From: an uncultured Bacilli bacterium
GTDB lineage: Bacteria; Bacillota_I; Bacilli_A; RF39; UBA660
Direction of reading: 5' to 3'
Length of the DNA stretch: 64,000 nucleotides
Assembly (NCBI GenBank): GCA_944329445.1
Contig: CALVIH010000002.1
Location: 8,242 to 72,241, forward strand
Part shown: positions 15,794 to 51,165 of the stretch, piece by piece
Layout: each line of letters begins with the position of its first letter
Position numbering within the stretch: the stretch's first letter is position 1
Program-made: the position numbers and the translations under genes
Notes under the pieces: generated by a model
Seen by the model: the letters and a program-made list of their open reading frames with translations, nothing else
Databases searched by the model: none
Told to the model about the DNA's origin: nothing

Positions 15794-16456
15794 TTAATCC
15801 ATCTCTACTATGTATAATTTATTATCTTCTCTTACTATTATCATGTTAGCTTCATTTTCATAACCAAAATCTTCTTTATATTCCCACGAAATAGTAACCT
15901 TATAAGCATCAACCGTTGTACCTGACTGAGTAGTTGTTTTTCTTCGTGATGTAGTTGTAGTGGTGGTTGTATCTTTGATAACAAAAGTCGTATCCTCAAT
16001 CTCTACTTCTGTTATTTCACTCACTTCTGGTAAATCTTGAGTCCTCGTGTCAGATTTTACCTCTAAATACCTATAAAAAGTACTTCTTGCCTCTTCTATA
16101 AAATTATCTCTCATGCTTTCTTTTATAAAATCAGTACCACCTATATCATTTTTTGAAAGCTTATTATCTAAAGTATAAAAATCAATTATAAATAGTTTTG
16201 CAATTTGCTTAGCATATGCCTCATAATCAACTTCTTTTTTAGATAATATATCGTCTAAATTTTCGAATTCATCTTTATAAAGCTGCGTTTCATTCTCTTT
16301 TAATTCGTATCCATACTCAGGGATTGATTTGATGGTCTTAACTTCTTGCCCGTCATCACCTGAAAAATAGCTGTATAAAAGAATCCCTATTATTGCTAAA
16401 ACAACTATTACTATTAAAGTAATTAATATTTTCTTTGTCTTATTTTTCTTCTTCAT
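15794..16456 (-). CDS. Membrane-anchored hypothetical protein with a Thr-rich linker
   Basis: N-terminal TM helix; TTTTTTTSRRKTTTQSGTT low-complexity stretch. Confidence 0.35.
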   Translation of the reverse strand: MKKKNKTKKILITLIVIVVLAIIGILLYSYFSGDDGQEVKTIKSIPEYGYELKENETQLYKDEFENLDDILSKKEVDYEAYAKQIAKLFIIDFYTLDNKLSKNDIGGTDFIKESMRDNFIEEARSTFYRYLEVKSDTRTQDLPEVSEITEVEIEDTTFVIKDTTTTTTTSRRKTTTQSGTTVDAYKVTISWEYKEDFGYENEANMIIVREDNKLYIVEMD

Positions 16457-23791: not shown

Positions 23792-24988
23792 TTATTTTAT
23801 AACTATTTTTACAAATTTTTTCTTTCCTTTTTGAATTACAAGTTCGTTATTAACAAAATTTTTAAAAGTAATAATGGTATTAACATCATTTTCTTTTGTT
23901 CCATTTAAACTAATTCCATTTTGTCCAATCAATCTTCTTCCTTCTGACTTTGATGGAACAATTTTAGATAAGAGTAATAAATCCGGTAATGAAATACTAT
24001 TATCTATAATAGAACTTTCTACTTCTATTTCTTCAATATTATCAGGTATACCACCTTTAGCAACTGTTTTATATCTTTTTTCTGCTTGCTCTATAAGTTT
24101 TTCCTCATGATACATCTTAATTATTTCTCTGGCATACACTCTATGAGCTTCCACCACATCTTTTTCTATAATTTTTTTCGCTTTATCTAAATTTATATCT
24201 GTAGTAAGTTTAAAATAATCCATCAATACATTATCAGGAATTCTCATTGCTTTTTCATACATAATCTCAGGGCTTTCATCAACACCAATATAATTTCCTA
24301 ATGATTTACTCATCTTTTCTTTTCCGTCTAAACCCACTAATAATGGAAAACACATAACATCTTGAGGCTCTTGTCCATAATCCCTTTGCAATTCTCTTCC
24401 CACTAGCAAATTAAACGTTTGATCTGTTCCACCTATTTCTATATCCGCATGTAATGCGACAGAATCATATCCTTGCATTAATGGATATAAAAATTCATGA
24501 ATACCTATTGGAATGTTATTTTTGAATCTATTATTAAAATCGTCTCTTTCTAAGATTCTAGCAACTGTATATTTGCCAGTCAAATTAATTACATCTTTAA
24601 ATGACATTTTTGAAAGCCATTCAGAATTATAAACTATTTTAATTTTATTTGGATCTAGAATTTTAGCAACTTGCTTAAAATACGTTTCTCCATTTTTTCT
24701 GGTTTCTTCAAAACTTAGTGATGGTCTCGTTTTTGATTTGCCAGAGGGATCACCAATCATTGCAGTGAAATCTCCTATAACAAAAACAATTTCGTGACCT
24801 AATTCTTGCAATATTTTTAACGCTCTAAGTGGTACAGTATGACCTAAATGCAAATCTGGTCTAGATGGATCAGCACCAAACTTTACAACCAACTTTCTAC
24901 CACTATTTAATTTTTCAATCAAAGTATCTTTATTATGAACTTCTACTGTTCTTCTTAATATTAAATCTATTTGTTCTTTTTTATTCAT
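23792..24988 (-). CDS. tyrS: Tyrosyl-tRNA synthetase (type-2, TyrZ-like length), copy 1
   Basis: Class-I HIGH motif (PDLHLGH), KMSKS, GDPSGKSKTR tyrosine-specific block, C-terminal S4-like domain. T-box leader upstream. Confidence 0.85.
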   Translation of the reverse strand: MNKKEQIDLILRRTVEVHNKDTLIEKLNSGRKLVVKFGADPSRPDLHLGHTVPLRALKILQELGHEIVFVIGDFTAMIGDPSGKSKTRPSLSFEETRKNGETYFKQVAKILDPNKIKIVYNSEWLSKMSFKDVINLTGKYTVARILERDDFNNRFKNNIPIGIHEFLYPLMQGYDSVALHADIEIGGTDQTFNLLVGRELQRDYGQEPQDVMCFPLLVGLDGKEKMSKSLGNYIGVDESPEIMYEKAMRIPDNVLMDYFKLTTDINLDKAKKIIEKDVVEAHRVYAREIIKMYHEEKLIEQAEKRYKTVAKGGIPDNIEEIEVESSIIDNSISLPDLLLLSKIVPSKSEGRRLIGQNGISLNGTKENDVNTIITFKNFVNNELVIQKGKKKFVKIVIK

Positions 24989-24999
24989 AAATATTCCTC

Positions 25000-25235
25000 C
25001 TTCAAAAAAATACCGTGATAATTCTTATTCCATAAGGACGAATTATCGCGGTACCACCTTAATTTATGGTTAATAACCATACACTCAAAGTTATAAAGTA
25101 ACTAACTAATAAACTCATAATGTGTAATTCAAATGTATTATATGTTTAATTCCACCAAACTTAAACTCTCTAAAATATAACTAATACACTTTACTTTATC
25201 ATTAATCAGCATCTATTTAATATAAGACAATTATA
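25000..25235 (-). promoter_or_regulatory. T-box riboswitch leader (terminator/antiterminator) controlling tyrS copy 1
   Basis: Minus strand reads AAUUAAGGUGGUACCGCG at 25064..25047, against the T-box consensus AAUUAGGGUGGNACCGCG. This overlaps the 5' arm of a terminator helix (CGCGATAATTC...GAATTATCACGG) followed by UAUUUUUUU just before the RBS. An AGAGAG stem-I motif lies upstream. Confidence 0.75.
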
Positions 25236-25273
25236 TTATATCATATAATTACTCTTTTAACATTATTTTTAAA

Positions 25274-26524
25274 TTATTTTTTTATTAATTTTTTATTTAC
25301 TTCTTGGTTTTGAGCTAATCTAAACATATTTCCTTTACCAATTTGAATAATTGTTCCGTCAATTGGTTTAAATACCAAATTTTCAAACCTTTCCCCATTT
25401 AGCTTAACAGCACCTTGTTGAATTAATCTTCTAACTTCACTTTTTGATTTATACTTTCCTGTAGAAAAAATACAATCAATTAATGAATATAAATCATTTC
25501 CATCTGCTAAGTTACTATCATAATTAATAATTGGTAATTCAATATTATTCACATTCTTTTTTTGATATATTGCTTGAAAACTAGCCTCAGCTTCTTTCAA
25601 CTCTTCTTCTGAATGATATAAAGAAACTATACTTCTTGCTAAATGCATTTTAATATCTCTTGGATTTGTTTCTCCATTTTGTAATAGTTTTTGTATTGAC
25701 TTTATTTTATCAGGATGCAAATCAGTTGTTAAATTATAATAATTAATTATCAGTTCATCTGGAACTCGCATAACTTTTTCATACATAGTTTTTGCATCTT
25801 CATCAACGCCAATATAATTACCAAGTGATTTACTCATTTTTTCTTTTCCATCAAGTCCAACTAATAATGGAACAAACAAAGCGACTTGTTGTGGCTTATT
25901 AAAATATTTTTGAATATTTCTTCCTAACAAAATATTAAATGTTTGATCTGTTCCTCCCATTTCTATATCAGAATTGACAACGACAGAATCGTAAGCTTGC
26001 ATTAAAGGATAAATAAATTCATGTAACGAAATAGGTTTATGAGAATTAAATCTATTTTTGAAGTCATCTCTTTCAAGCATTCTTGCTACAGTAATATTAC
26101 TACATAAGTTTAAAACTTCCGAAAAAGATATTTTATTATACCATTCACTATTAAAATGAATTTCTGTTTTTGATTTATCTATAATTTTAAATATTTGTTC
26201 AAAATAAGTTCTGGCATTTGCTTCAACTTGTTCTTTAGTAAGTTGATTACGAGTTTTTGATTTGCCTGTTGGATCACCAATTGCACCTGTAAAATCACCA
26301 ATTATTATAACTGCTTTATGACCTAAATCTTGCAATTGTTTTATTTTTCTTAATGAAACTGCATGACCAAGATGAATATCTGGTGAAGATGGGTCCATTC
26401 CGAATTTAATTCTTAATGTTCTACCTTCATTATAGACTTCTTCAACCTTATCTCTAATAGCCTGTTCATCTACATCTGTAATTCCCTTTAATAAATATTT
26501 AATTGTTTCTTCTTTGTTAAACAC
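25274..26524 (-). CDS. Tyrosyl-tRNA synthetase paralog, copy 2 (GTG start, strong RBS AAGGGGG)
   Basis: PDIHLGH, KMSKS and GDPTGKSKTR motifs; collinear with copy 1 over the full length (about half identical by eye); no T-box upstream. Confidence 0.8.
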   Translation of the reverse strand: MFNKEETIKYLLKGITDVDEQAIRDKVEEVYNEGRTLRIKFGMDPSSPDIHLGHAVSLRKIKQLQDLGHKAVIIIGDFTGAIGDPTGKSKTRNQLTKEQVEANARTYFEQIFKIIDKSKTEIHFNSEWYNKISFSEVLNLCSNITVARMLERDDFKNRFNSHKPISLHEFIYPLMQAYDSVVVNSDIEMGGTDQTFNILLGRNIQKYFNKPQQVALFVPLLVGLDGKEKMSKSLGNYIGVDEDAKTMYEKVMRVPDELIINYYNLTTDLHPDKIKSIQKLLQNGETNPRDIKMHLARSIVSLYHSEEELKEAEASFQAIYQKKNVNNIELPIINYDSNLADGNDLYSLIDCIFSTGKYKSKSEVRRLIQQGAVKLNGERFENLVFKPIDGTIIQIGKGNMFRLAQNQEVNKKLIKK

Positions 26525-26586: not shown

Positions 26587-28113
26587 AACATTTGATAGTT
26601 GTGTAAAATAGTTTGGGGAAAGAGTATGAAAAAAGGAAGACCTCTGTTAAAATGTAGTTGTACAAAACATTAGAAAGGAGTCTTCCATATGAGCATTGTA
26701 CCACAAAATTATAATAATTTGTTAAAAAATATCATTTTAAATACTTTTTCTTCTAATTTAGAAAGTATATTACATAACATCTTTGATTCTTCAAATAACG
26801 TCTTTAATTATGTTAACCTACTTTCCAATTTAGATAATTCTCTTTGTAATATTGCAAAGCAATCCCTTATCACTTGTTTTGAATCCATTGATAAATCTTT
26901 TAAATATTCTTTAGGAAGAAAACGTAAATATGAGATTAAATCTTATCATCCTAGAACTATTCTTACTGTTTTTGGTGAAATTACTTTTTATAGAACTTTC
27001 TATAAATCTAAACTAACTGGTAAAAACTTCTGTTATGTTGATAGATTATTAGGCCTTCATAAATATGACTATTTTGATCCTTATTTAAAATCTATTGTTA
27101 TTGAGTATTCTTCTTTTATTTCTTATCCTAAGGTGGCTAAATATCTTAATGATTTAATTGGTAATAGAGTATCCATTAATGATAAACAAAAATATTTTTC
27201 AAGACAAACCATCAGAAACATTATTTTAAATTCCAATCTTTCTATCGTTAATTATGATCCTAAGCCTGTTACACCAGAAACATTATACATCATCGCTGAT
27301 GAAAAATGGATTCCTACTCAAAATAATGACAATAATAAAATAATGGAAAAATCCGTTGTTATCTTTGAAGGTATTAAAAATCATAAACTTTTAAATAAAA
27401 GAATCTTCGCTTCTTATGATAATTCTTTTATAAATGATTCTTTAGATTATCTTTTTTATACTTATGACATTGATAAAATTAAAAACATTTTCGTTATGGG
27501 TGATGGTGCCAAATGGATCTATAAGTTAAAACATGAATATAAAATTGCATCTCATATAAATGTTACTTTTTGTTTAGATAAATTCCATTTTAAACAAGCC
27601 ATTCATCATATATGTTTAAACAAAGACTTAGAAGATATTCTTTCCTTTTATGTTTTAAATGATATGAAAAATGATTTCATAGATTGTTGTTCTTCTTTAA
27701 TTGATTCTTTCCCACACAGAACCGAAACTATTAACTTAAAAATGAATTACATTTTAAATAATTGGAAAAATATCAACAACTTATATTCTCATAATTTAAG
27801 TTGTCCTATGGAATCTCAAGTTTCTCATAACATCGCTGATTTATTTACCTCTAGACCTAAAGCTTATTCTGTTAATATGATTAATAAATTAATTGAAATC
27901 AGACTTCACTATAAAAATAATGATAATTTAAAAGAGTTATACTTAAATAACTTTAATTCAAGTACAACTCTTACTCTCGATAATCATTCTCTTAACTTCA
28001 ATATTTTTGATAATTTTCAATCGTATAACTTTTTAAATAACTTAATTTTTAATCCTACATTTTAACTTTTTCTATTATTTTCCCCAAAACTCTTTACATT
28101 AACATTTGATAAT
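26587..28113 (+). mobile_element. IS-like element (about 1.5 kb) bounded by imperfect terminal inverted repeats
   Basis: Left end AACATTTGATAGTTGTGTAAAATAGTTTGGGGAAAGAG (26587-26624) and right end TTTTCCCCAAAACTCTTTACATTAACATTTGATAATG (28077-28113) share an inverted TTTCCCCAAA.../...TTTGGGGAAA core and an ACATTTGATA block. A single transposase ORF lies inside. Confidence 0.4.
26689..28065 (+). CDS. Putative DDE transposase (ISLre2/UPF0236-like)
   Basis: 458 aa. YIIADEKWIPTQ and MGDGAKWIYK blocks resemble DDE-transposase catalytic motifs of the ISLre2/UPF0236 type. An 11-bp inverted repeat GGAAGACCTCT/AGGAGTCTTCC spans its RBS. Confidence 0.45.
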   Translation: MSIVPQNYNNLLKNIILNTFSSNLESILHNIFDSSNNVFNYVNLLSNLDNSLCNIAKQSLITCFESIDKSFKYSLGRKRKYEIKSYHPRTILTVFGEITFYRTFYKSKLTGKNFCYVDRLLGLHKYDYFDPYLKSIVIEYSSFISYPKVAKYLNDLIGNRVSINDKQKYFSRQTIRNIILNSNLSIVNYDPKPVTPETLYIIADEKWIPTQNNDNNKIMEKSVVIFEGIKNHKLLNKRIFASYDNSFINDSLDYLFYTYDIDKIKNIFVMGDGAKWIYKLKHEYKIASHINVTFCLDKFHFKQAIHHICLNKDLEDILSFYVLNDMKNDFIDCCSSLIDSFPHRTETINLKMNYILNNWKNINNLYSHNLSCPMESQVSHNIADLFTSRPKAYSVNMINKLIEIRLHYKNNDNLKELYLNNFNSSTTLTLDNHSLNFNIFDNFQSYNFLNNLIFNPTF

Positions 28114-29336
28114 GCATCAAATACATATCCAGAATTACCAATATTTATTAAATATTTACTAATTTTTTCAATATTTAACTTTGTTTCTTTAAAATCTGGA
28201 TAAACAATTTTAAAGATAACTTCTAGTTTGCTTTTTAATTTTTCATAAAAACATTCTTCATCATTATTAAAACAATAATAATTTAATTCATCATTAAAAC
28301 TACTATTTAAATTTACAGAATCAATTGAATAAAGCAATACTGGTAATAAAGCAGAAACTAATTTTAAGTTTTCTCTATATGCATGAATAATAGTATTATT
28401 AAATAATATTAAAATTTTTTTGTATAATTCTTTATTTGTTTTTCTAATTGCATAAAATGTCATATCCATTATTGCATCCATATTATAACCAAATAAATCA
28501 GAAATAATCGATGCCATATCAATAGGTAATAAGCAATAATCATCATATGTAATAATTTCCTTTTTCTCTGCAAACAAAACTATTTCCATAATTTTTTTTC
28601 GTAATTCCAAATCACTTTCTGAATAGCCTAATATTTCTTTAAAGTTGGATTCATAAGTATTTAATTGTGGTTCCATTCCATTATGTGTTTGCAAATCAAT
28701 TACTATATCTCTTATTAATTTCAAGTCATATAAATAACTCCAATTAATAAACAAATTTGTTCTATAAAGTAAATTAAAATATTGTATTCTTTCAAAAAAA
28801 CTAGCATTTTCAAAATCAAATAAGTAAATTTTTTGTTTTTCTTTAGAAACAACCATATTTCTAGGACAAAATCCTGGGTATTCAATTCCTAATTCACACA
28901 ATAATTTCAACATTTTTTCAAAATCATTTATTGTAAAACATAATTCATCCTGTGAGTATAAATGCTCTTGTAAAGTATTTCCCATATAATTAGTTGCAAT
29001 ATAATTTTTACCATCAACATTATATAATTTAGGTTCTATAACTTCAAGTTGAAAATTATTAATTTTTTTTCCTGTTATTAATGTAGAAGCCAACAAAGTA
29101 TTTGACATTTCTATTTTTGATTTTTTAGGATTCATATACTTTATAAGATATTCAACATTTCTATATCTAAAGATCCTAAACCTGTTATTTACATCTAATA
29201 ATTCAGAATTGTGAAAAAAATTATATATTGGATCTTTGTATGCAATTCTTATTGCATCTTCAAAATTATCAGTTTCAACAATATTGATATCATTGCTTTT
29301 ATGTAACGCACTATATAACTTACCCATTTTCACCAT
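28062..29336 (-). CDS. Kinase-fold (choline/Kdo-kinase-like) protein with a C-terminal helical extension; last gene of the 7-gene operon
   Basis: GFCPRNMVV ... KIYLFDFENASF resembles the catalytic loop and the DFE (Brenner) motif of choline/APH-type kinases, but the catalytic Asp is not evident. The 3' end overlaps the IS right inverted repeat. Confidence 0.4.
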   Translation of the reverse strand: MVKMGKLYSALHKSNDINIVETDNFEDAIRIAYKDPIYNFFHNSELLDVNNRFRIFRYRNVEYLIKYMNPKKSKIEMSNTLLASTLITGKKINNFQLEVIEPKLYNVDGKNYIATNYMGNTLQEHLYSQDELCFTINDFEKMLKLLCELGIEYPGFCPRNMVVSKEKQKIYLFDFENASFFERIQYFNLLYRTNLFINWSYLYDLKLIRDIVIDLQTHNGMEPQLNTYESNFKEILGYSESDLELRKKIMEIVLFAEKKEIITYDDYCLLPIDMASIISDLFGYNMDAIMDMTFYAIRKTNKELYKKILILFNNTIIHAYRENLKLVSALLPVLLYSIDSVNLNSSFNDELNYYCFNNDEECFYEKLKSKLEVIFKIVYPDFKETKLNIEKISKYLINIGNSGYVFDALSNVNVKSFGENNRKS

Positions 29337-30297
29337 CTTCTAAAAATTCATTCATAAATGCCGCGCCTATCATTCCTGCACTATTACCAAGTTTTGCTTG
29401 AATAACATTAACCTTCGGAGTACATTTATAACCATAATCTCTCTTAGCAATATATTCATTGATTTTTTTAAACAAAAAATCTCCTGTTTCTGAAATTCCA
29501 CCGCCAATTATTATTGCTTCTGGTCTAAAGCAATTACATATGTTTAATATACCTTCACTTAAATATTTTACATATTTATTGATTACCTTATTAGCCGATT
29601 TATCATTTAATTTAGCACAAGTGAAAGCTAAAGTCCCATCAACATTTTCGATATTGCCATAAACATGACTCCACATCAAAGAATTTTTGTTATATAACAT
29701 TTCTTCTTTTGTATACCTAATTAATGCTTTTGCAGATGCATATGCTTCAAAACATCCATGCCTACCACAAGTACATAATTCGCCATTCATCATTAATAGA
29801 GTGTGTCCAACTTCTCCGCCTTTATCTCCATTTCCTTCAAATAATTTCCCGTTTATAACAATTCCAGCACCTATTCCAGTTCCTATTGTCATAACAATCG
29901 CACTTTTATATTGCATACCAGCCCCAAACATCATTTCACCTATACAAGCTGATCTTGAATCATTACAGATTTTCATAGGAATAGTTATTCCTTTATCTTT
30001 TAATAATCCAATTATAGGAACATTATTCCACGATAAATTCCCAGAAAATTCAGCTAACCCTTTTTTTCTATTAACAATTCCTGGTATGCCTAATCCAATA
30101 AAAGATAGAAATGTATCACTTATACTCTTATTTTTTTTTATTAAATAATTTATTAAATTATATAAATTATCAACAACACTTATTTTTTCATCATCATTGA
30201 AAGTTTGGACTTTGGTAGAAAATAAAACATTTCCTTTATCATCTATAATTCCACCTTTTATAAAAGTCCCGCCAACATCTATACCTATTCTATTCAT
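29320..30297 (-). CDS. ROK-family sugar kinase (glucokinase/N-acetylhexosamine kinase-like)
   Basis: RIGIDVGGTFIKGG N-terminus and the zinc motif CTCGRHGCFEAYAS. Confidence 0.75.
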   Translation of the reverse strand: MNRIGIDVGGTFIKGGIIDDKGNVLFSTKVQTFNDDEKISVVDNLYNLINYLIKKNKSISDTFLSFIGLGIPGIVNRKKGLAEFSGNLSWNNVPIIGLLKDKGITIPMKICNDSRSACIGEMMFGAGMQYKSAIVMTIGTGIGAGIVINGKLFEGNGDKGGEVGHTLLMMNGELCTCGRHGCFEAYASAKALIRYTKEEMLYNKNSLMWSHVYGNIENVDGTLAFTCAKLNDKSANKVINKYVKYLSEGILNICNCFRPEAIIIGGGISETGDFLFKKINEYIAKRDYGYKCTPKVNVIQAKLGNSAGMIGAAFMNEFLEDGENG

Positions 30298-31321
30298 ATC
30301 TTAACACCTTATCCTTCACATTTAGATCGATAGCAAAATCCAATGAACGTATTGGAATTTTCTTCATTGTTTCTTCTCTTTTTAGCCATATATTTTCAAA
30401 ATATTCCTCAAATGTTTCAAACTCGTAGTATTCCTTTCCAATAGTCGGTAATACACCTAAATCAATTATAATCCATTGCTGTTTTTCTTCGCACCAAATA
30501 AAATTACCAGGATGAATATCTAGAATAATTTTATTAAATAATAATGAATACGTAGAGTAAAATAATCTTAAAGATTTTATTTGTTTTTCCGTAAAAGGAA
30601 TATGATTAAAAAGATAATACTCTCCATTCTCTCCGCTTACAAAATTGTGCATCAAAAATTTATTCACAGCATCAAAAGTATAATTTTCGGGTAAAAATTT
30701 ATTTAAATCTGTTTTTGATAAATAGTTATACGAATCCATTTCCTGTTGCATCAGAAATAATTTAGATGCAACAGTTTTTGGATATTTTATAATTACATTT
30801 TTTTCTAAATAAATATTTGATATAGCACCAGTATCATTGAGCAGAAACAAATTTTCTAATTTGTTTTTTTTTAATGTTACTACCCTATATAAATACATAA
30901 GTGAAAACTCAATTATGTTTTTTATATCTTTTTCAGTTATAGGCATTGTATAAATAATATTATTGAATGCATATAAAACAAGAGGACACAAACCATTGTC
31001 TGCCAAAATATTATTCAGTAATAAACTGTTTTCAAAAAGGTTATCTTCTGGTTTCATAACATTATTAAACAAAACTACTATATCATTTACATTATTAATC
31101 TTAATGTTTCTTTTACTTTTTAAAAAAGTCCTGTTATCGTATAATAATTTTTCTAAAAAAGCATAATAATAATCGTATTTTTTAGAATCGTTCTCTTTTA
31201 AATACATTAAATGATTTTTATAAACCACAAAATTAATTTTATTTTTTTCTTCATAAGTCATTTTAGAATAAAACAACATATAATTAAATAAATCTTGATT
31301 ATTTAATTCACTAAGTTTCAT
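30290..31321 (-). CDS. APH/choline-kinase-family phosphotransferase
   Basis: ILDIHPGNFIW (D-x-H-P-G-N catalytic loop) and IIIDLGV (metal-binding Asp) in the C-terminal lobe. Confidence 0.5.
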   Translation of the reverse strand: MKLSELNNQDLFNYMLFYSKMTYEEKNKINFVVYKNHLMYLKENDSKKYDYYYAFLEKLLYDNRTFLKSKRNIKINNVNDIVVLFNNVMKPEDNLFENSLLLNNILADNGLCPLVLYAFNNIIYTMPITEKDIKNIIEFSLMYLYRVVTLKKNKLENLFLLNDTGAISNIYLEKNVIIKYPKTVASKLFLMQQEMDSYNYLSKTDLNKFLPENYTFDAVNKFLMHNFVSGENGEYYLFNHIPFTEKQIKSLRLFYSTYSLLFNKIILDIHPGNFIWCEEKQQWIIIDLGVLPTIGKEYYEFETFEEYFENIWLKREETMKKIPIRSLDFAIDLNVKDKVLRYE

Positions 31322-31322
31322 A

Positions 31323-33251
31323 TTACCTTTTTAGACCATTTGGATATTTATCTAAATATTCTTTAGTTTTTTTCTTTATATATTTTACATCTGTTTCATT
31401 TTTTAAAGACTTATCAAAGAAATAATTAGAATTATCAAAATAATATGTTACTTCTTCCAACGAAAGTCCAAAAGGATTTTCATTATTTATAAATTGTTCA
31501 ACGTCTAAATCCTTTGGAGGCTTATGATACTTTAATTCTCTCATTTTGAATCCAGAATTTATTAATTTTTCATCATGATATAATTCTATTTTATACTTAG
31601 CATCTACATAAATCGCATCTATGCCTTTTTGTAGTGCGAATTGAATAGCTTCATTAATATTATTAATAATTGGTTCTCCAGCATCGTTCAAAGAAGTATT
31701 ACATAAAACAGGAATTTTTGTCCTAGCATAGAATGATTTCAATAACTCATATAAATTTTTATTACTTTCTGAACTAACACTTTGAATTCTCGCAGTTCCG
31801 TCATAATGAGTTACAGCAATTAAGTCATCTCTGTATTTTTGTTTAATACTCAAGTTCAATAACATATATGGTGAAAATCTATAATCTTCAAATATTTCTG
31901 AACCATGTTCATCCATTATTAATGGCGCTACTGGTCTCCACCACTGTCTTTTTTTAATAACATTAAGTTTATCTTTTATTGCTTGATATCTTGGATCGCC
32001 TAAAATTGATCTATCTCCCAAAGCACGAGGACCTATTTCTGCTCTTCCATCAATCCATATCATAATGTTATTTTCTAATTCAGCAGCAATTTTATCAATT
32101 GTAATCTCTTTAATTTCTTTTATATATTTTTTGTTTTCTGCGTTTATGGAATTAATACCACCATGATATTGTCCATAATATACTGTATTCAAGTTAACTT
32201 TTGCTTTTCCAGTAGAAAGTAATGGATAAAATGCCGCTAGGCCTACTCCTAAAGCAATACCTGTATCACTTGCACATGGAGGAATTTGATAGTTCTTAAA
32301 TTTGTATTTTTTTAATATTGAACTGTTAGTTGGACAATTTAAAGCAAAACCTCCTGCTAAAGCAATTGTTGTTTCCTTAGGATCCAATTTAAATGTTGAC
32401 AATATTTTATCAATATGTTTAAATACCATTTTTTCAGAAAGAACAGAAATTATTTTCATAACCATACTAATATAATTTTCTTGTTCTGTAAAATTCTCAT
32501 TAAATTTTGAACATTTTATACCTATATCCTCTTTTTTTATAGATAAAACTTGATTGCATATATCTTCAACAATAAATTGTGCATTTCCTCTAGCTTCTTC
32601 ATTATAGAAAGTTATACCATCATATTTTGAATAATCAAAATTATAAAATTCTGTGTCCATAGCTGTAGCCAATGCCATTAATGACCCTTCTCTTAAGCCA
32701 AATTTTTTATATGAATAACTCCAAAATCTTGCAGGTGATTCAACTTCAAAAAATTCAATTTTACCATTATTTATAACAGCACCTGAATAATATTGCAAAT
32801 CATATGCATTATTTTCAAAGCAACTATCTGGTCCTGCATCCAGAGCCAAAGCAATAATTTTATCAGAAAAAGGGGTACTATTTGAATAAAGTATACTTGT
32901 TAATAAATGTGCAATATTATGAAAGCATACTCTTGAGTCAATATAATTCATATAATTATTATCTATTTCTATACCTTTAGTACCCCAGATCCCTTTAATA
33001 TCATTTAGCGTTAACTGCTCTTCTTCTAATAATTTATTTATTAATTCTAATAAATAATCTTTGCTATACGCCGCAATTTGATGTTGCTTTATACCAGTAA
33101 TTCTTTCTAACTCCCAATATTTTACTAATTTAATTTCATCGTCAAAATAACTCCATAATGCGATAGTATGATCATGCCTAACTTTTACCTTTAAAATATT
33201 TTGCAATTCTCCAAAAGATAAAAATGTTGATATATAATAACCTTCTTCCAT
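31323..33251 (-). CDS. NodU/CmcH/TobZ-family O-carbamoyltransferase
   Basis: ERITGIKQH, ALAGGFALNCPTNS, and C-terminal GPRALGDRSILGDPR...KRQWWRPVAPL (Carbam_trans_C-type block). Confidence 0.7.
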   Translation of the reverse strand: MEEGYYISTFLSFGELQNILKVKVRHDHTIALWSYFDDEIKLVKYWELERITGIKQHQIAAYSKDYLLELINKLLEEEQLTLNDIKGIWGTKGIEIDNNYMNYIDSRVCFHNIAHLLTSILYSNSTPFSDKIIALALDAGPDSCFENNAYDLQYYSGAVINNGKIEFFEVESPARFWSYSYKKFGLREGSLMALATAMDTEFYNFDYSKYDGITFYNEEARGNAQFIVEDICNQVLSIKKEDIGIKCSKFNENFTEQENYISMVMKIISVLSEKMVFKHIDKILSTFKLDPKETTIALAGGFALNCPTNSSILKKYKFKNYQIPPCASDTGIALGVGLAAFYPLLSTGKAKVNLNTVYYGQYHGGINSINAENKKYIKEIKEITIDKIAAELENNIMIWIDGRAEIGPRALGDRSILGDPRYQAIKDKLNVIKKRQWWRPVAPLIMDEHGSEIFEDYRFSPYMLLNLSIKQKYRDDLIAVTHYDGTARIQSVSSESNKNLYELLKSFYARTKIPVLCNTSLNDAGEPIINNINEAIQFALQKGIDAIYVDAKYKIELYHDEKLINSGFKMRELKYHKPPKDLDVEQFINNENPFGLSLEEVTYYFDNSNYFFDKSLKNETDVKYIKKKTKEYLDKYPNGLKR

Positions 33252-33262
33252 ATTTTCCTCCT

Positions 33263-35524
33263 TTATCTAAATACAAATGGTCTTGGTTTATGCGGAACTT
33301 CTTTTGCTTCAAAAGTATCTTTTATTTTATCAAAATCCTTAATGTGTTTCATTAATTCATCAACAAATTTATCAACATATTGTCTATTAAAATGTGCAGA
33401 CATTGGATAAGCTTTTAAAACACCTATCTTTTTTCCATTGGATAAAACGTGATATCCTGATGAATAATCAATAGTGAACGAACACTTACCTTGTTTTTCC
33501 TTTTCAAGTAAATATGTATAAAATTTGTAATTATACTCGCCAAATTTTTTGGCATATTCCAAATCTCCATTACCTAAATCAAAGAAAGATGGAACATTGT
33601 TTTTTTCTTTTGCAACAAATAATGTTACAAATCCATTACTATCTAAGTCATTTATTACTTCAAATTTTCCAGTTTGTTCAAGTTTTTCTTTCAAATATTG
33701 TGAAGAATCCAAGAGATTTGCCATTATTTTTTGATATCCTTGAATACCTAACATTTTCAAATTAACATAAGCCGAAATAGGTCCACTTAATGGTCTCGAC
33801 AATTCAAGAGTATATTGGAATGGTGAATAATTGCCAAATTCTAATTCATCATATGGAATATTAGGAGCATCACCTTGTTCATATAATTCAGTTTTATCTT
33901 TAGTAATATATAGACTTGCTAGATAAGAACAAAAACCAGTTTTATGGAAGTCTACTCCAAATGAATCAGCGTATTTTATATCTTTAATTTGCTCTGTTAA
34001 AAACTTAATCTTATTTAAAGCTTTTGTATGAATATTTAATGGATTTTCATTAAAATCATAATCTTTAAAGAATAACCATACCCAACCAATTACTGAATCA
34101 ACATGAACTCTTGGAATATAATCAAGGTTATATTTTTTTACCATTTTATTTCTTAATTCAACAATTTTTTTTATAGGATCAATAGTCATTTGAATAGTAG
34201 TACATCCATTTACAATGATTGTAGCCACCTTTTTTCCTAAAGATAGAGCTTCATCAAATTCCTTCTCCAATTCATTTAAATCCACAACACCCATAGAATC
34301 TATTTTTATTCTTTTACAATTATTTTCACCTATACCTAACCATCCACAAACTTCAACATGGCAGATATGACCTTGAGTATTTGAAAAAACAATTATTTCA
34401 TCTTTTATTCCTGTTTTTCTAAAATCCTTATTTACTCTTTGGATACCATGTTTAACTGCATGCATATTTGTTGATTTGCCTCCAAATGTAAATATACCGC
34501 CGGATTTTTTATAGTCAATATCAGCTAATTCACTTATCATTTTTATAGTTGCAAGTTCAGTAGTCATCAATAATCCGCACGATAAATCTTGTGCTGCATT
34601 TGGATTATATAATGAGAAATAACTACTTGCTGCTAAAGATTCAATTGTAGGAACAGGATTAACGTTTGTTAAAGTACCTGGATTATTCCATAAAACCATA
34701 CCTTCTGTATATTTAGTTAATTGTTCATATACTTCATCAACACTTTGTGATTCAAATTTTAAATTTTCGTATTCCAAAAATTCTGCATATTTTTTATTTG
34801 TATTTTTAGGAATTCTTGAATAAGAATGGATTATGTTTTTGTCAACTTTCTTATGTAATAACTCAATATCATTCAAAAATTCAGCTATATCCATTGTTTC
34901 TGGATTTAAAAAATGTTTATTCATATTTAATTTTTCCTTTTCATAATTAATTTTTTCTAATGCATCTTCAATATTGCTTATTTCTCTTTTGTTTTTTATA
35001 TACATTGTTTTAAAGCCTAAAAAACTTGCCGGCTTTATATCAACCATATAATTATCACCTATTACATAAATTTGTCGTGGTGACAATTTATATTTTTTTA
35101 CGATTTTTTTGTATATTTCAAATTTATTTTTATGTTTATCAGTACAATAAATTTCGTCAAATAATTTTTCAACACCTAAATTTTTAAGTATTTCTTTAAC
35201 ATGATACTCACATGAATTAGAGCAAACGATCTTTTTACCATCTAACTTACACAATTCTTTTTTTAAATTATCATTTTTATCAAAATATTCATTGTAATTT
35301 ATATCTTTATATACTTCTTTATAAAAATCCTTTTTATCAATCTTTAACTTTTCTAAAGCAATTAATAAATCAGGAATTTCTTTTTCTAAATTTTTATATT
35401 CGTTTTCTGTTAAATGTCCTTTTTGCTTTATATAGTTTTTAATTCTTTTGTCAATTATTTTCGAAATGCGATTACTTTCATCATATAATGTTCCATCTAA
35501 ATCAAAGATAAATAATTGTTTCAT
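33263..35524 (-). CDS. Fusion protein: N-terminal HAD-superfamily phosphatase plus PLP-dependent group-II decarboxylase
   Basis: HAD motifs FIFDLDGTLYDE, CSNS, YVIGDNYMVD (residues 1-200); decarboxylase motifs SGGIFTFGGKSTNMHAV, HVDSVIGW and the PLP-lysine block SFGVDFHKTGF. Confidence 0.65.
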   Translation of the reverse strand: MKQLFIFDLDGTLYDESNRISKIIDKRIKNYIKQKGHLTENEYKNLEKEIPDLLIALEKLKIDKKDFYKEVYKDINYNEYFDKNDNLKKELCKLDGKKIVCSNSCEYHVKEILKNLGVEKLFDEIYCTDKHKNKFEIYKKIVKKYKLSPRQIYVIGDNYMVDIKPASFLGFKTMYIKNKREISNIEDALEKINYEKEKLNMNKHFLNPETMDIAEFLNDIELLHKKVDKNIIHSYSRIPKNTNKKYAEFLEYENLKFESQSVDEVYEQLTKYTEGMVLWNNPGTLTNVNPVPTIESLAASSYFSLYNPNAAQDLSCGLLMTTELATIKMISELADIDYKKSGGIFTFGGKSTNMHAVKHGIQRVNKDFRKTGIKDEIIVFSNTQGHICHVEVCGWLGIGENNCKRIKIDSMGVVDLNELEKEFDEALSLGKKVATIIVNGCTTIQMTIDPIKKIVELRNKMVKKYNLDYIPRVHVDSVIGWVWLFFKDYDFNENPLNIHTKALNKIKFLTEQIKDIKYADSFGVDFHKTGFCSYLASLYITKDKTELYEQGDAPNIPYDELEFGNYSPFQYTLELSRPLSGPISAYVNLKMLGIQGYQKIMANLLDSSQYLKEKLEQTGKFEVINDLDSNGFVTLFVAKEKNNVPSFFDLGNGDLEYAKKFGEYNYKFYTYLLEKEKQGKCSFTIDYSSGYHVLSNGKKIGVLKAYPMSAHFNRQYVDKFVDELMKHIKDFDKIKDTFEAKEVPHKPRPFVFR

Positions 35525-37458
35525 CTATTTTTATTCAACCTCTTTAAAACCATTTTTTTTATCCCTTCATCATCAAATTGATAATGTTTAATCAAATCAT
35601 CAACTTTACCAGACGTACCTTCATAATACCCATGTCCATATATAAATTTAGGTCTTGGTAATGTTTCACTACTCAATATTGTGCTTGATACATGTTGTGG
35701 AAGTATTTCTGGACTACCATTATATAATGTAATAATAGGAGCATCATTAACTAATAATTCATTTGCTTTTTGTTCAAACTTATTTGGGCATACCATGTTT
35801 ATTACATTTGTTGGAATTCCATAATTTATTTCCAAATCTTTTGCAACTTTTACAGCATTTTCTCCCATAAAACCAGTAGAAATTAGCACAAGCCTAGGTT
35901 CTTTATCAGTTTGATGAATATAATAGGCAATAATATTATCTTTATCACTATCGTTTCGTTCAATATTTAAAGTCCCATGATGTATTCTAACATAATTCAA
36001 ACCAGTATTTTTCTTTAAGATTGATGAATATATATTGTATAAATCCACATTATCAGCCGGTTCATAAAAATTCACATCTGGTATGGTCATTAAAGCACCT
36101 GGCTGTGATACAGTTTGATGTGTTTTTCCGTTATGTCCTTGAAATATTCCTGAATTTTCTCCAATAACTAATATATTACTTTCGCCCGTTGCTGCTGCAT
36201 TAAGTTGATCCATAAACCTGTACGAAAAAGCATCTCCACTACATAATATAATTCTTGCATCACGATTTTCCACTGAAATGCCATGAGCCATTGCTATAGC
36301 ATGTTGTTCTCTAATTCCTGTATTAATAAAATGCGTAAAATTTTTAAAGTCTGCTAAAGTCTCTGTATCCTTTCTTATCAAATCAGGTGTAATAAAATAT
36401 ATATTTGACTTATCATGACTTTGTATTACATTTTTTCTTAATTCTTCAAAAAACTGATCTTGTGCATCTTCAACATTTATACCAGTATGATCCGTATGTA
36501 TGTCAAATACATCAGAATCAATATAGTTATTCTTAATAATTACATTAGACGGAGTAGAAATAAGTTTCTTTGCAAGTGAAGAAATGTTTTCACAACTTAA
36601 TCCTTGCTGTTCTAACGCTGTTTTCATTTCTTTATAAGTCTCTATTATAAGTTCTTTTTCTTTTTTACTAGCACCTGATAATGTATGATATCCATTAAAA
36701 TGTTCAATGGCATTTTTAATTCCATAAGCTTTTGTTGTATTTGCAATAATCATAATTGGTTTATTTTGTTTTTGTGTCTTACTATATGCATCTAAAACTT
36801 CTTGTATATTATTACCATCTTCTATAGATATAACATCCCAGCCATATCCTCTCCATATTTCTTCAATATTTGCTCCAGAATCATGATAACTTGTTGCTCC
36901 TGATAATTGTTTACCATTTTTATCCAATATACATATTAGATTATTTAAATTTAAATTAGCTGCATGACGAGCTGCTTCAGAAATATTTCCTTCTTGTTCT
37001 TCACCATCCCCTAGGAAAACAACTATTTTTGAATCAATACTTTTATCCTTATTTGCTATTGCAGAACCTACTCCATAAGAAAGAATCATTCCTAATGAAC
37101 CACTTGGTGTAATATCTACTCCAGGAACAAAAAACATATCCTCGTGTCCTTGCAATCTAGACCCTAATTGTCTGTACCCTTTTAATTCATCTGGTTTAAT
37201 GTATCCTAATAGTGAAAATATTGTATATCTCAAAGGGCCTTCATGACCTCTTATCAAAACTCTATCTCTATTTGGATTTTTCGAGTCTTCTGGATCAAAA
37301 TTAAAAACTCCTCCAAAATACAAAGCTGTTAACAACTCTACTGAAGACATATTTCCTCCAAGATGCCCATTATTTGCATTTAGAATTGTTCCTAATGCTG
37401 TTGTTCTAACATAATTAGCGATCTTCTTTAATTCATCTAATCTTTCTTTTTCCGTCAT
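35521..37458 (-). CDS. Transketolase-family thiamine-diphosphate enzyme
   Basis: GHLGGNMSSVELLTALYF, NPNRDRVLIRGHEGP, GYRQLGSRLQGHED, and the TPP motif GDGEEQEGNISEAARHAANLNLNNLICILDKN. Confidence 0.7.
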   Translation of the reverse strand: MTEKERLDELKKIANYVRTTALGTILNANNGHLGGNMSSVELLTALYFGGVFNFDPEDSKNPNRDRVLIRGHEGPLRYTIFSLLGYIKPDELKGYRQLGSRLQGHEDMFFVPGVDITPSGSLGMILSYGVGSAIANKDKSIDSKIVVFLGDGEEQEGNISEAARHAANLNLNNLICILDKNGKQLSGATSYHDSGANIEEIWRGYGWDVISIEDGNNIQEVLDAYSKTQKQNKPIMIIANTTKAYGIKNAIEHFNGYHTLSGASKKEKELIIETYKEMKTALEQQGLSCENISSLAKKLISTPSNVIIKNNYIDSDVFDIHTDHTGINVEDAQDQFFEELRKNVIQSHDKSNIYFITPDLIRKDTETLADFKNFTHFINTGIREQHAIAMAHGISVENRDARIILCSGDAFSYRFMDQLNAAATGESNILVIGENSGIFQGHNGKTHQTVSQPGALMTIPDVNFYEPADNVDLYNIYSSILKKNTGLNYVRIHHGTLNIERNDSDKDNIIAYYIHQTDKEPRLVLISTGFMGENAVKVAKDLEINYGIPTNVINMVCPNKFEQKANELLVNDAPIITLYNGSPEILPQHVSSTILSSETLPRPKFIYGHGYYEGTSGKVDDLIKHYQFDDEGIKKMVLKRLNKNR

Positions 37459-37475: not shown

Positions 37476-38921
37476 CTACTTCCTATTGAACTCTCTTATT
37501 CTTCTTTTCGCATACGTCGTAACTGCTTTGTCTTCCCAATCTTCTCTTGGTCCAAATGATAAATCGTCTGTTATTATTCTTACTCTATCTTTGTTTTTAA
37601 GTGGCTTATCAACATCCACATACTCATCATTTACAATAGCAGCCACCATGGTATTACCAATATCAGTATGTATTTTATAGGCAAAATCTATTGGTGTTGC
37701 TCCTACTGGTAACTCAACTATTTCTCCTTTAGTTGTGTATACATATATTTTGTTTGCAAATAATTCATTTTTCACTTGATATACAAATTCTTTATTGTCT
37801 CCAAAAACTTTATCCATTTCAACAAGTGATGTAAAAAACTGATATTTATCTTTTAGTTCTTGTTGCATAACTTCTCTTGCTTTCCCCTTTTCAATATCCC
37901 AATAAGTTGATAGTCCAAACGATGCTACTTTATCCATATCAAATGTTCTTATTTGTGTTTGTACTAATCTATCATCTGGTGCAAATACGGTTGTATGAAG
38001 TGATCTGTACATGTTTGTTTTTGGATTGCATATAAAGTCTTTAAACTTGCCATTTACCGGATTATACTTACTATGAACAAGTCTTAATGTTTGATAACAA
38101 TTATTAACCGTATCAACCATTACTTTAAGAGCTAACAAATCATGTATGTCAGATATTTTTCCACCTTCATTTAACTTTTTATATATTCCATATATATTTT
38201 TTGTTCTTACTTTTATTTCATTTGGAATTGATTCATCATTAAGCATACTTTGTATCGTTTGTAACATTTCTTTTAAACATGATTCACTTTCTTCTTCAAT
38301 TCTTATTTTCTTTTCACCAATCATCTTATACATATCAGGCTTTAAATACCTAAGTGATAAATCCTCTAATTCTTGTTTTATTCTATATGCTCCAATGTAA
38401 TATGCCATAGGAACAAATATCTCAAGTGTTTCTAGAGCATTTTCTTTTTGTTTAAACTCACTTTTAAATTGTAAAGTCCTCATGTTATGAAGCCTATCAG
38501 CCAGTTTTATTAAAATAATTCTTACATCATTTGTTATACTTGTTATTATTTTTCTTGTATTAGCCAAATTCTGATCTTGTTTTGATGAAAAGTTCATCTT
38601 ACTTATCTTTGTTACTCCGTCAACTAAGTTTGCAACATCACTATTAAAGTTTTCTGCAATTTCTTCTTTAGAAATATTAGTATCTTCTAAAGTGTCATGT
38701 AAAAGACCCGCACATACTGTGTCACCATCCGCTCTTAATTCAGCTAATATGTAAGCTACATTTAACGGATGAATTATATAAGGTTCGCCGCTTTGTCTTT
38801 GCTGGCCTTGATGAAGAGTATTTGCCATATTATAGGCCCTTCTTACTTCTTCAACCTCATCAGGATTATATGATTTAATAATACCTATTAAATCATTAAT
38901 ATCTAGACTTTCTTTACTCAT
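37476..38921 (-). CDS. RelA/SpoT homolog truncated after the TGS domain (HD hydrolase + synthetase + TGS; no ZFD/ACT C-terminal region)
   Basis: HD motif HPLNVAYIL...LLHDTLEDT; synthetase motifs RTKNIYGIYKKL, DLLALKVMV, YRSLHTTV, QTQIRT; TGS motif IYVYTTKGEIVELPVGATPIDFAYKIHTDIGN. First gene of the operon. Confidence 0.7.
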   Translation of the reverse strand: MSKESLDINDLIGIIKSYNPDEVEEVRRAYNMANTLHQGQQRQSGEPYIIHPLNVAYILAELRADGDTVCAGLLHDTLEDTNISKEEIAENFNSDVANLVDGVTKISKMNFSSKQDQNLANTRKIITSITNDVRIILIKLADRLHNMRTLQFKSEFKQKENALETLEIFVPMAYYIGAYRIKQELEDLSLRYLKPDMYKMIGEKKIRIEEESESCLKEMLQTIQSMLNDESIPNEIKVRTKNIYGIYKKLNEGGKISDIHDLLALKVMVDTVNNCYQTLRLVHSKYNPVNGKFKDFICNPKTNMYRSLHTTVFAPDDRLVQTQIRTFDMDKVASFGLSTYWDIEKGKAREVMQQELKDKYQFFTSLVEMDKVFGDNKEFVYQVKNELFANKIYVYTTKGEIVELPVGATPIDFAYKIHTDIGNTMVAAIVNDEYVDVDKPLKNKDRVRIITDDLSFGPREDWEDKAVTTYAKRRIREFNRK

Positions 38922-38937
38922 AAAACACCTCCTTTTA

Positions 38938-38989
38938 TAACAAAAAGGCAGTAACTCACAAGGTCATACGACCTTAAAAGTTACTGCCT
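38938..38989 (-). terminator. Strong hairpin plus U-tract in the leader of the Rel-headed operon (terminator or attenuator)
   Basis: GGCAGTAACT-caca-AGGTC-atac-GACCT-taaa-AGTTACTGCC followed by UUUUUG on the minus strand, about 20 nt upstream of the rel RBS. Confidence 0.5.
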
Positions 38990-38994
38990 TAAAG

Positions 38995-39093
38995 TTATTT
39001 GATTAAGAAGCAGAATAAGCATAAGAAAATTAAGCCAACAAATTTGCTAGCCAAAAATATTTTATCTTCTGAAAGCAGTCTATAATTTCTCAT
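38995..39093 (-). CDS. 32-codon hydrophobic leader ORF (MRNYRLLSEDKIFLASKFVGLIFLCLFCFLIK) preceding the attenuator hairpin
   Basis: Strong RBS AAGAGGTGAG 6 nt before the ATG; the ORF ends 5 nt before the hairpin. Confidence 0.3.
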   Translation of the reverse strand: MRNYRLLSEDKIFLASKFVGLIFLCLFCFLIK

Positions 39094-39189
39094 GCTACTC
39101 ACCTCTTAAAATATTTTAATTATAAACTACTCTTTATTTTAGAACTTGTCAAGCTTTTTTTGACAAATTTTTCCATTTTTTTAGATTTG

Positions 39190-50811: not shown

Positions 50812-51165
50812 AGTTTTAATAAGCCACGTTCTGTACCAGCATAACTGGTCGTAAACATTTATCTATGCTAAAATTAGCATCCCTTACTCCGTTCGTTTCC
50901 TTCGTAAGGGTTCCCCTACCAAATTTGGGTTTCTCACTCATGGGGTTTACCCTCGTTCCACCTTCTTGGTTTCCCAAGAAAATCGTCACTATGGCACTTT
51001 ATGCCTAACATAACCATATCACAAGGACTATAGGTTACTTCGGCGCCGTTAGGATTAATCCTACCAAAGGTTATTTATTCCCTTTGCATGAACACTACGG
51101 CCATCACAGAACCGTGTGAGCGTGGACTTTCCTCTACTTAAAACAAGCAGCGTTTACGTAAAAAC
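50812..51165 (-). ncRNA. rnpB: RNase P RNA (bacterial type B)
   Basis: Minus strand reads GUUUUUACGUAAACGCUGC...UAGAGGAAAGUCCACGCUCACACGG... AAAGUGCCAUAGUGACG ... GGAACGAGGGUAAACCCCAUGAGUGAGAAACCCAAAUUUGGUAGGGGAACC ... ACAGAACGUGGCUUAUU. This is collinear with B. subtilis rnpB including the P4 sequences, and it lies directly downstream of gpsB as in Bacillus. The ends are accurate to about 5 nt. Confidence 0.8.

Follow-up and report, generated by a model that had tools for sequence, protein, structure and literature searches.

A truncated gene for a long RelA/SpoT homolog (RSH) lies on the - strand of a 64,000-nucleotide stretch of contig CALVIH010000002.1 from an uncultured Bacilli bacterium (the whole stretch is called the window here), and its closest described counterparts each share part of its design. 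The Firmicutes bifunctional Rel enzymes (Bacillus subtilis Rel, 6yxa and 8acu; RelSeq, 1vj7) are its best sequence matches (E of 1e-124 to 1e-84), with a near gap-free alignment over the HD, SYNTH, Core and TGS domains and the first helix of the helical domain (HEL), an identical HD site and most SYNTH contacts identical. However, the window RSH is without the rest of HEL and without the ZFD/CC and RRM/ACT domains, and the catalytic Glu and three further invariant SYNTH residues are replaced. Judged from its sequence, ribosome-dependent synthesis is not expected of it. Its natural end, at about B. subtilis residue 483, falls between those of the laboratory Rel truncations 1-583 and 1-373 (PMC7797070), and it carries in addition a SYNTH site predicted to be dead. 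In that work, B. subtilis Rel without ZFD and RRM showed increased hydrolysis and decreased synthesis, while the N-terminal domain (NTD) alone had almost no hydrolysis activity; by analogy, these truncations predict that a natural NTD-plus-TGS form would be a good hydrolase.

Truncation in the helical domain and loss of synthesis in a long RSH are already known separately. RshC (Atkinson et al. 2011, PMC3153485), likewise from Bacilli, is cut within the helical domain, with TGS kept and CC and ACT gone. By its published description, however, RshC is of the [HS] type with intact synthetase motifs, and is a second copy beside Rel in six Bacillus strains only, whereas the window family is of the [Hs] type, carries Q321, K266, S334 and Y340, and is spread through RF39-type metagenome-assembled genomes (MAGs). 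The hydrolase-only long RSH with a pseudo-SYNTH domain is represented by the Moraxellaceae SpoT[Hs] (Acinetobacter baumannii SpoT, 7qpr; PMC9974481). There an active HD domain is accompanied by a retained, non-catalytic pseudo-SYNTH domain that serves as a regulatory module, and the Core and TGS domains support HD by aligning its active site. By analogy, A. baumannii SpoT is probably the closest match to how the window RSH works. The two nevertheless differ, since A. baumannii SpoT keeps HEL, ZFD and RRM, has a far more degenerate SYNTH site (R249K, R277E and Y329N equivalents), and belongs to the gammaproteobacterial SpoT clade, working beside RelA. In contrast, the window RSH is a Firmicutes Rel derivative: its best match by sequence in the PDB is B. 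subtilis Rel 6yxa (E 1.6e-124, 419 bits, versus 205 bits for 7qpr), and it falls outside the beta/gammaproteobacterial SpoT clade.

We conclude that the window RSH is probably a monofunctional (p)ppGpp hydrolase, a "mini-SpoT[Hs]", whose expression is probably gated by a conserved leader. The architecture and the substitutions are read from the gene itself; the hydrolase activity is predicted from its sequence and from experiments on other RSH enzymes. A change of Glu to Gln at the catalytic Glu is the classic laboratory mutation that makes an RSH synthetase dead and hydrolase proficient: synthesis is undetectable in RelSeq E323Q and D264G, and E. coli SpoT E319Q shows ppGpp0 behaviour in a relA null background with an unchanged ppGpp decay rate. 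In the literature we found no description of the truncated and synthetase-dead combination, of its spread in RF39, or of the leader.

Architecture and active sites of the truncated RSH

The gene and its parts are as follows.

37476..38921, - strand: complete open reading frame (ORF) of the truncated long RSH, ATG start, 481 aa, TAG stop (ORF listing)
38403..38837, - strand: HD (p)ppGpp-hydrolase domain, residues 29-173 (Pfam HD_4, E 2.6e-41)
37896..38207, - strand: pseudo-synthetase (SYNTH-fold) domain, residues 239-342 (Pfam RelA_SpoT, E 5e-29)
38124..38126, - strand: codon AAA, K266, replacing the Arg of D-x4-R, five residues past the RelSeq D264 position (codon read directly)
37959..37961, - strand: codon CAA, Q321, at the catalytic-Glu position (RelSeq E323, SpoT E319, B. 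subtilis E324; codon read directly)
37902..37922, - strand: S334 and Y340 in ASFGLSTYW, where A-E-x-G-x-A-A-H-W has an invariant E and H (alignment and codons)
37752..37889, - strand: Core linker, a helix-turn-helix region between SYNTH and TGS, residues 345-390 (aligns with B. subtilis Rel 347-392)
37569..37748, - strand: TGS domain, residues 392-451, containing H418 (B. subtilis H420; Pfam TGS, E 8.6e-22)
37479..37568, - strand: C-terminal 30 residues, the first helix of the helical domain (alignment ends at B. subtilis 483)

The Core domain takes its name and role from the SpoT structure paper (PMC9974481). Residues 8-481 of the window RSH align almost gap-free with residues 9-483 of B. subtilis Rel (6yxa). 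In this alignment, VQTQIRT stands opposite LEVQIRT and places Q321 at the catalytic Glu, DLLALK stands opposite DLLAVR (K266), ASFGLSTYW opposite AEYGVAAHW (S334 and Y340), and GKFKD opposite GRFKD. One of the two catalytic carboxylates of bifunctional [HS] Rel (D264 and E323 in RelSeq) is thereby present as D261, and the other is Gln. The SYNTH domain also retains the substrate-contact residues R239, K241, D261, K294, K301, N303, Y305, H309, Q323 and R325. In the HD domain, the HDTLEDT motif at residues 75-81 is intact, as are all eight catalytic residues (R42, H51, H75, D76, E79, D80, D142 and N146, codons checked; R44, H53, H77, D78, E81, D82, D144 and N148 in RelSeq). SYNTH-critical residues are thus lost while the HD site is kept, as in enzymes of the SpoT[Hs] type.

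The chain has the order of a long RSH, with HD followed by a SYNTH fold and with TGS after the catalytic half, and its three further domains set it apart from the single-HD small alarmone hydrolases (SAHs; Mesh1). It falls short of the full six-domain structure, which adds helical, CC/ZFD and ACT/RRM domains. The chain stops 30 residues past TGS, inside the first helix of the helical domain, and the remaining HEL, ZFD/CC and RRM/ACT domains, by which Rel is anchored on the ribosome, are absent, leaving about 250 C-terminal residues fewer than in full Rel. Consistent with this, the TIGR00691 spoT_relA model is matched above its cut-off (528 versus 499 bits) but over model positions 1-450 of 687 only. 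No remnant of a C-terminal domain was found by phmmer with canonical C-terminal domains (E <= 0.01) among the ORFs of the window and of 80 loci from other genomes.

What the initial annotation had observed in the protein holds, one label apart. Its ORF of 481 aa at 37476-38921 matches the ORF listing exactly, its quoted motifs are in register in the residue-by-residue alignment to 6yxa, and the Glu-to-Gln and Arg-to-Lys substitutions are real by both alignment and codons. The HD motif that it called intact includes catalytic residues invariant in the family, and the protein does end about 30 residues after a TGS domain. It was right about the Arg-to-Lys change in DxxxxR but not about its "G-loop" label, since the SpoT structure paper assigns this Arg to the part of the site that recognises adenosine/ATP, and lists the matching Rel residue among those that coordinate adenosine and guanosine (PMC9974481). 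It had also allowed that its manual alignment might be off by a register, with Glu and Arg in fact conserved, in a reduced-genome lineage where truncated Rel is the norm; truncated Rel is indeed the norm there, but both residues are truly lost.

From these features, the window RSH would act as a Mn2+-dependent (p)ppGpp 3'-pyrophosphohydrolase, without alarmone synthesis and without ribosome-dependent activation. Given the Acinetobacter SpoT precedent and the B. subtilis Rel truncation results, we propose that pseudo-SYNTH, Core and TGS would be retained to hold the HD active site in an active conformation. Synthesis of the alarmone would fall to a different enzyme not seen here, such as a small alarmone synthetase. 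The public names of such proteins, "bifunctional (p)ppGpp synthetase/hydrolase", "GTP diphosphokinase" and "GTP pyrophosphokinase" (e.g., P0032 and P0272), are on sequence grounds probably wrong in their synthetase part.

Conservation and spread of the truncated family

Among the best matches in a collection of 5.8 billion proteins, the 120 closest homologues (74-98% identity, 474-484 aa) all have HDTLED and, in place of the Glu, Q. When one genome per species was scanned, 40 family loci were recovered at 54-80% identity, with ORFs of about 475-494 aa and again Q in all; their sources are MAGs labelled uncultured Bacilli or Mollicutes, "Mycoplasma sp. CAG:611" and "Firmicutes bacterium CAG:460". 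The 90% cluster of the window RSH includes a protein of Candidatus Aphodocola excrementigallinarum, which is placed in Bacilli incertae sedis by NCBI and in order RF39, family CAG-433, by GTDB. The window's 28% G+C and class B RNase P also fit a placement among RF39 Bacilli; the class B bacterial RNase P RNA lies at 50815-51165 on the - strand (298.7 bits) and is consistent with a host of the Bacilli/Mollicutes type.

We compared the sites of 41 truncated family members with those of 37 full-length relatives (661-764 aa; a few ORFs cut by contig ends). At the RelSeq E323 position, all 41 truncated members have Q and all 37 full-length relatives have E. The RelSeq R269 position is K in 40/41 versus R in 37/37, the Glu of A-E-x-G is S or T in 40/41 versus E in 37/37, and the His of A-A-H-W is Y in 41/41 versus H in 37/37. 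Given this split, the four SYNTH substitutions are not chance; together with the truncation they are fixed throughout a large and diverse clade. The eight HD catalytic residues are 100% identical in both groups. Within the family, identity is 0.78 in HD, 0.67 in the SYNTH region and 0.64 in TGS (0.63-0.78 across the four named domains), compared to 0.51 in the 29-residue C-terminal tail.

A gene shorter than canonical Rel and lacking catalytic residues might be taken for a decaying remnant, a pseudogene, or an assembly or annotation fragment of full-length rel. This reading is already contradicted, and we regard it as next to impossible. The ORF is intact and the same alignment end recurs in 120 database proteins and 40 genomes, without frameshifts or variable ends; no C-terminal-domain remnant lies downstream; the HD residues are fully conserved, and identity stays high in all four domains. 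The gene also has its own conserved promoter and leader (described below).

The same pattern reaches beyond the close family. A profile search of 1.84 billion cluster representatives was made and the best 150 were analysed, with representatives counted as truncated if they end within 25 residues of position 481. Among these 150, the Glu was absent in 44/47 truncated forms and kept in 102/103 long forms (Fisher P = 4e-33). The position is mostly Q in the 44 truncated representatives, and K, L, H or a gap in others. Because of this split, truncation and loss of the synthetase Glu are seen at the sequence level to go together across many lineages sharing < 50% identity. Three truncated representatives in the group of P0125, P0210, P0226 and P0122 retain the catalytic Glu (E-R-E-H or E-R-K-N), and could be RshC-like active forms or gene fragments. 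P0122 itself is a Q-type protein of 545 aa whose profile match covers positions 5-376 only.

These alignments also bear on whether the SYNTH site is inactive or altered. The initial annotation had raised an altered nucleotide product as a possibility; a site with Gln, Lys, Ser and Tyr might make a different nucleotide or pyrophosphorylate another acceptor, such as a tRNA end. The pseudo-SYNTH domain of the window's family is, by its conservation, under purifying selection and not freely decaying: more than 160 close sequences have Q321 without exception, and because the ten other substrate-contact residues are invariant as well and identity in the region is 0.67, the domain must be kept for some reason. 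A new chemistry would account for such conservation, but E-to-Q abolishes synthesis in RelSeq and SpoT, the adenine-contacting Arg of the ATP-recognition motif is lost too, and the Glu position is K, L, H or a gap in truncated lineages farther away, with further decay of the QIRT, D264 and R241 equivalents in L042, L045, L063 and L066. Because of this drift and decay in the deeper branches, the alignments argue for an inactive synthetase site rather than new chemistry, and we consider altered catalysis very improbable. The hydrolase-only RSH that the initial annotation offered beside it therefore stands as the best reading, on the register alignment, the site table, the survey of representatives, and the E323Q and E319Q data.

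A further alternative accepts the hydrolase fold but gives it different work. In a lineage that makes no (p)ppGpp, the HD domain might have been put to use on another 3'-phosphorylated nucleotide, or might degrade (pp)pApp or foreign alarmones. The animal SAH Mesh1 has been reported to hydrolyse NADPH. Along these lines, a SYNTH-competent RSH was found neither in the window nor in any fetched RF39 locus, second copies in one MAG are also of the Q type (L005/L015 and L026/L038), and the genomes are reduced (contigs of 1.07-1.33 Mb and a circular MAG of 1.26 Mb). However, about 20 kb per genome was scanned, so that absence of a small synthetase is not established; every HD residue of the (p)ppGpp site is the same as in true Rel enzymes, and the starvation-type leader before the gene fits alarmone control. 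We judge a repurposed HD domain to be improbable. The doubled copies stand at 76% identity to each other in L005/L015 (CAKPBH01) and 53% in L026/L038 (CAKOIF01). In L042, a second RSH N-terminal fragment (16263-16724) lies 5 kb downstream of a degenerate truncated copy and is cut by the contig end. All of these double copies may be paralogues or mixed bins.

The TGS domain raises the question of tRNA. When uncharged tRNA acts on B. subtilis Rel, hydrolysis is inhibited via H420 of TGS; the effect persists in the C-terminally truncated forms tested, and only the NTD-only fragment loses it (PMC7797070). The hydrolase might likewise still be gated by uncharged tRNA, with TGS binding a free CCA 3' terminus away from the ribosome and turning hydrolysis off in starvation, a reading that is compatible with the preferred one and does not exclude a hydrolase. 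The initial annotation had pointed to tRNA sensing, and the CCA-reading His is indeed kept in the window RSH (H418) and hardly varies in relatives that are at least 74% identical. Across the truncated relatives, however, this His is present in only 25/41 family loci and 23/47 truncated representatives, being replaced in the remaining 16 and 24, versus 37/37 and 102/103 in full-length enzymes. In addition, isolated TGS forms no stable complex with tRNA in the absence of the helical domain (PMC7797070), of which one helix is left here. These sequence data suggest that tRNA gating is possible for the window's subclade but is not what holds TGS in the family; overall we think such gating rather unlikely.

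A cysteine-rich leader upstream of the RSH gene

The region between the preceding gene and the RSH start codon contains, in order of transcription, the following features.

39216-39192, - strand: terminator of the preceding gene
39124..39152, - strand: sigma-70-type promoter, TTGACA-17 nt-TAGTTT, with a perfect TATAAT 5 nt further downstream
38995..39093, - strand: leader short ORF (sORF) of 32 codons plus TAA (MRNYRLLSEDKIFLASKFVGLIFLCLFCFLIK), with Shine-Dalgarno (SD) sequence AAGAGGTGA; two TGC codons for Cys stand close to the end of the sORF
38941..38990, - strand: intrinsic-terminator hairpin and U-run UUUUUGUU (-34.6 kcal/mol, z = -7.55, RNA folding)
38928-38935, - strand: SD sequence of the RSH gene, AAAGGAGG, directly after the hairpin

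In the window, the hairpin starts 7 nt past the stop codon of the sORF, counted from the codon's first base (4 nt from its last), and the gap between hairpin and RSH gene leaves no room for a promoter. The same layout of promoter, Cys-rich sORF and terminator stands upstream of RSH in L001-L040 and in the divergent truncated L045, about 85% of family loci. It was not found upstream of full-length Rel genes, AT-rich ones included (L041, L046-L048). An sORF of 16-49 codons with its own SD was present at 36/41 RSH loci versus 90/433 control genes (Fisher P = 7e-18), and an sORF containing Cys together with a hairpin at 29/41 RSH loci versus 7/433 other genes in the same loci (P = 3e-30), with the caveat that the loci are related, so that these P values overstate independence. 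Upstream of the sORF, a TTGAC[AT]-N16-18-TAnnnT promoter is present in 34 of the 36 loci that have one, and the distance from its end to the sORF start is 19-33 nt (mostly 28-33). The hairpin and U-run end roughly 18-30 nt before the RSH start codon across the family; their sequences vary and their position is fixed.

The sORFs are enriched in Cys (78/1267 residues, 6.2%, versus 1.1% in long ORFs of the same loci). Their Cys codons are often tandem, with CC, CCC, CxC and CxxC patterns, and TGC makes up 50% of them, compared to a background of 16%. Relative to the stem start, the sORF stop codon falls between -9 and +25 nt (median +11), and the median distance from the last Cys codon down to the stem is 22 nt. 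A lipoprotein signal peptide, considered for the "FSC" motif of the sORF, was dropped, many sORFs being without a hydrophobic core. At gathering threshold, no known riboswitch or leader family matched the 340-nt upstream region, and a permissive RNA-family search of the same region gave chance-level matches only (mir-268, E = 0.083; PyrR, 21.6 bits with a cut-off of 54) and no ykkC/ppGpp type. An sORF with its own SD between promoter and terminator and an enrichment in Cys codons, the latter subject to the RNA-motif reservation given below, are what an attenuator would be expected to have. The leader, together with these features, suggests a candidate for ribosome-mediated attenuation.

Attenuators built on Cys codons have been described in upstream ORFs (uORFs), namely uORFC-8-2 upstream of cysS in Rhodobacterales (PMC8632094) and the polycysteine sORFs of mycobacteria (bioRxiv 10.1101/834739). 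They resemble the present leader in having a short ORF with tandem Cys codons, a preference for UGC, an intrinsic terminator and a regulated gene, but differ in that here an RSH is regulated, not a cysteine-metabolism gene, and the terminator itself contains the stop codon of the sORF. We found no report of a Cys-codon uORF attenuator before an RSH gene. A conserved antiterminator of the trp type was looked for in the leader. Because none was found, the logic may be of a coupling type, in which translation prevents termination, rather than stall-induced read-through. The model builds on the place of the sORF stop codon, at the terminator's 5' arm or within it: a ribosome that gets to this codon would melt the arm, termination would fail and RNA polymerase would continue into RSH. 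If the ribosome instead stalled on the Cys codons, some 22 nt before the stem is reached, the terminator would stay free and there would be no read-through. Expression of the hydrolase would then fall when charged tRNA(Cys) is scarce.

Several results weigh against a leader-gated hydrolase and temper our confidence in it, the relatedness of the leader loci mentioned above being one. With the leaders folded without the 3' arm, no consistent partner of the 5' arm emerged. Part of the Cys signal may be an RNA-level constraint, given a recurrent YCAUGCUU motif that pairs with the sORF start region and the TGC bias. In the window, the SD/start region of the sORF (~39075-39111) pairs with the Cys-codon region (~39003-39030) on the - strand at -26.1 kcal/mol (z = -5.7), and the mean z for this pairing across 34 family leaders is -1.5. 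The direction of regulation is drawn from geometry only, and the opposite polarity is also possible. On the enzyme side, the invariance of the ten SYNTH contact residues leaves room for nucleotide binding or residual chemistry, and an AlphaFold model from a 24-sequence alignment was too poor to address domain packing (pLDDT 58, pTM 0.43, SYNTH and Core < 50). Finally, no (p)ppGpp synthetase was found in the window or the 80 loci, a small and biased sample of low power at ~20 kb per genome. Searches for a synthetase or second RSH (phmmer of all window ORFs at E <= 10; a SYNTH-domain profile hidden Markov model, filters off, at E <= 1, on the window and the 80 loci) returned only genes already known and, in L042, one cut fragment. 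Nevertheless, a leader-gated monofunctional hydrolase remains our preferred reading.

Neighbouring genes and the meaning for RF39

Six tightly packed genes follow the RSH gene at 28062-37458 on the - strand. Within this interval they are the following.

transketolase-like gene, 645 aa
HAD hydrolase fused to a pyridoxal phosphate (PLP)-decarboxylase-like domain, 753 aa
NodU/CmcH-type carbamoyltransferase, 642 aa
gene of unknown function, 343 aa
ROK kinase, 325 aa
second gene of unknown function, 424 aa

The set looks like a pathway for sugar or amino-sugar modification or for a small molecule. The transketolase-like gene begins 17 nt after RSH with no terminator between, so that the RSH gene does lead an operon in this genome, as the initial annotation had proposed. 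In 40 related loci, however, the downstream genes differ: clustering of the flanking ORFs of 44 loci gave no conserved neighbour, and single homologues of the six-gene set occur near RSH in L028, L020 and L019 only. Operon partners were ruled out as a functional clue; because the neighbouring genes differ from genome to genome, the operon says nothing on RSH function.

Further along the window are two tandem tyrosyl-tRNA synthetase (TyrRS) paralogues (416 and 398 aa, 23792-26524, - strand), of which only the downstream one is preceded by a T-box leader (25031-25218). A UPF0236 (transposase-like) gene at 26689-28065 on the + strand separates this pair from the six-gene cluster. A TyrRS homologue is also found near RSH in L025, L032, L007, L027, L033 and L040. 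No tRNA genes were found in the 64-kb window.

A search of the literature on the stringent response of RF39 returned nothing. Tentatively, and with less conviction than we attach to the hydrolase itself, starvation sensing in RF39 might have moved from protein to mRNA: with synthesis and the ribosome-binding C-terminal domains lost, a hydrolase-only mini-Rel would be switched by a Cys-codon leader that has to be translated as far as the terminator before the gene is read, and alarmone levels would be set by regulated degradation, not by ribosome-activated synthesis. The Cys-rich leader offers a testable link between tRNA charging and alarmone turnover. If the hydrolase reading is true, the family would represent one more long RSH that has lost synthesis naturally and independently, as has the Moraxellaceae SpoT. 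Plant RSH1 is a further case of such a loss. In the window RSH, nature would further have supplied a minimal construct (HD, pseudo-SYNTH, Core and TGS) that tests whether Core plus TGS is what a hydrolase requires. RF39 is a widespread, uncultured order of gut bacteria with reduced genomes. If its only long RSH is a hydrolase, the synthetase annotations would be wrong for the whole order, and metabolic models built on a ribosome-triggered stringent response would be inapplicable to it.

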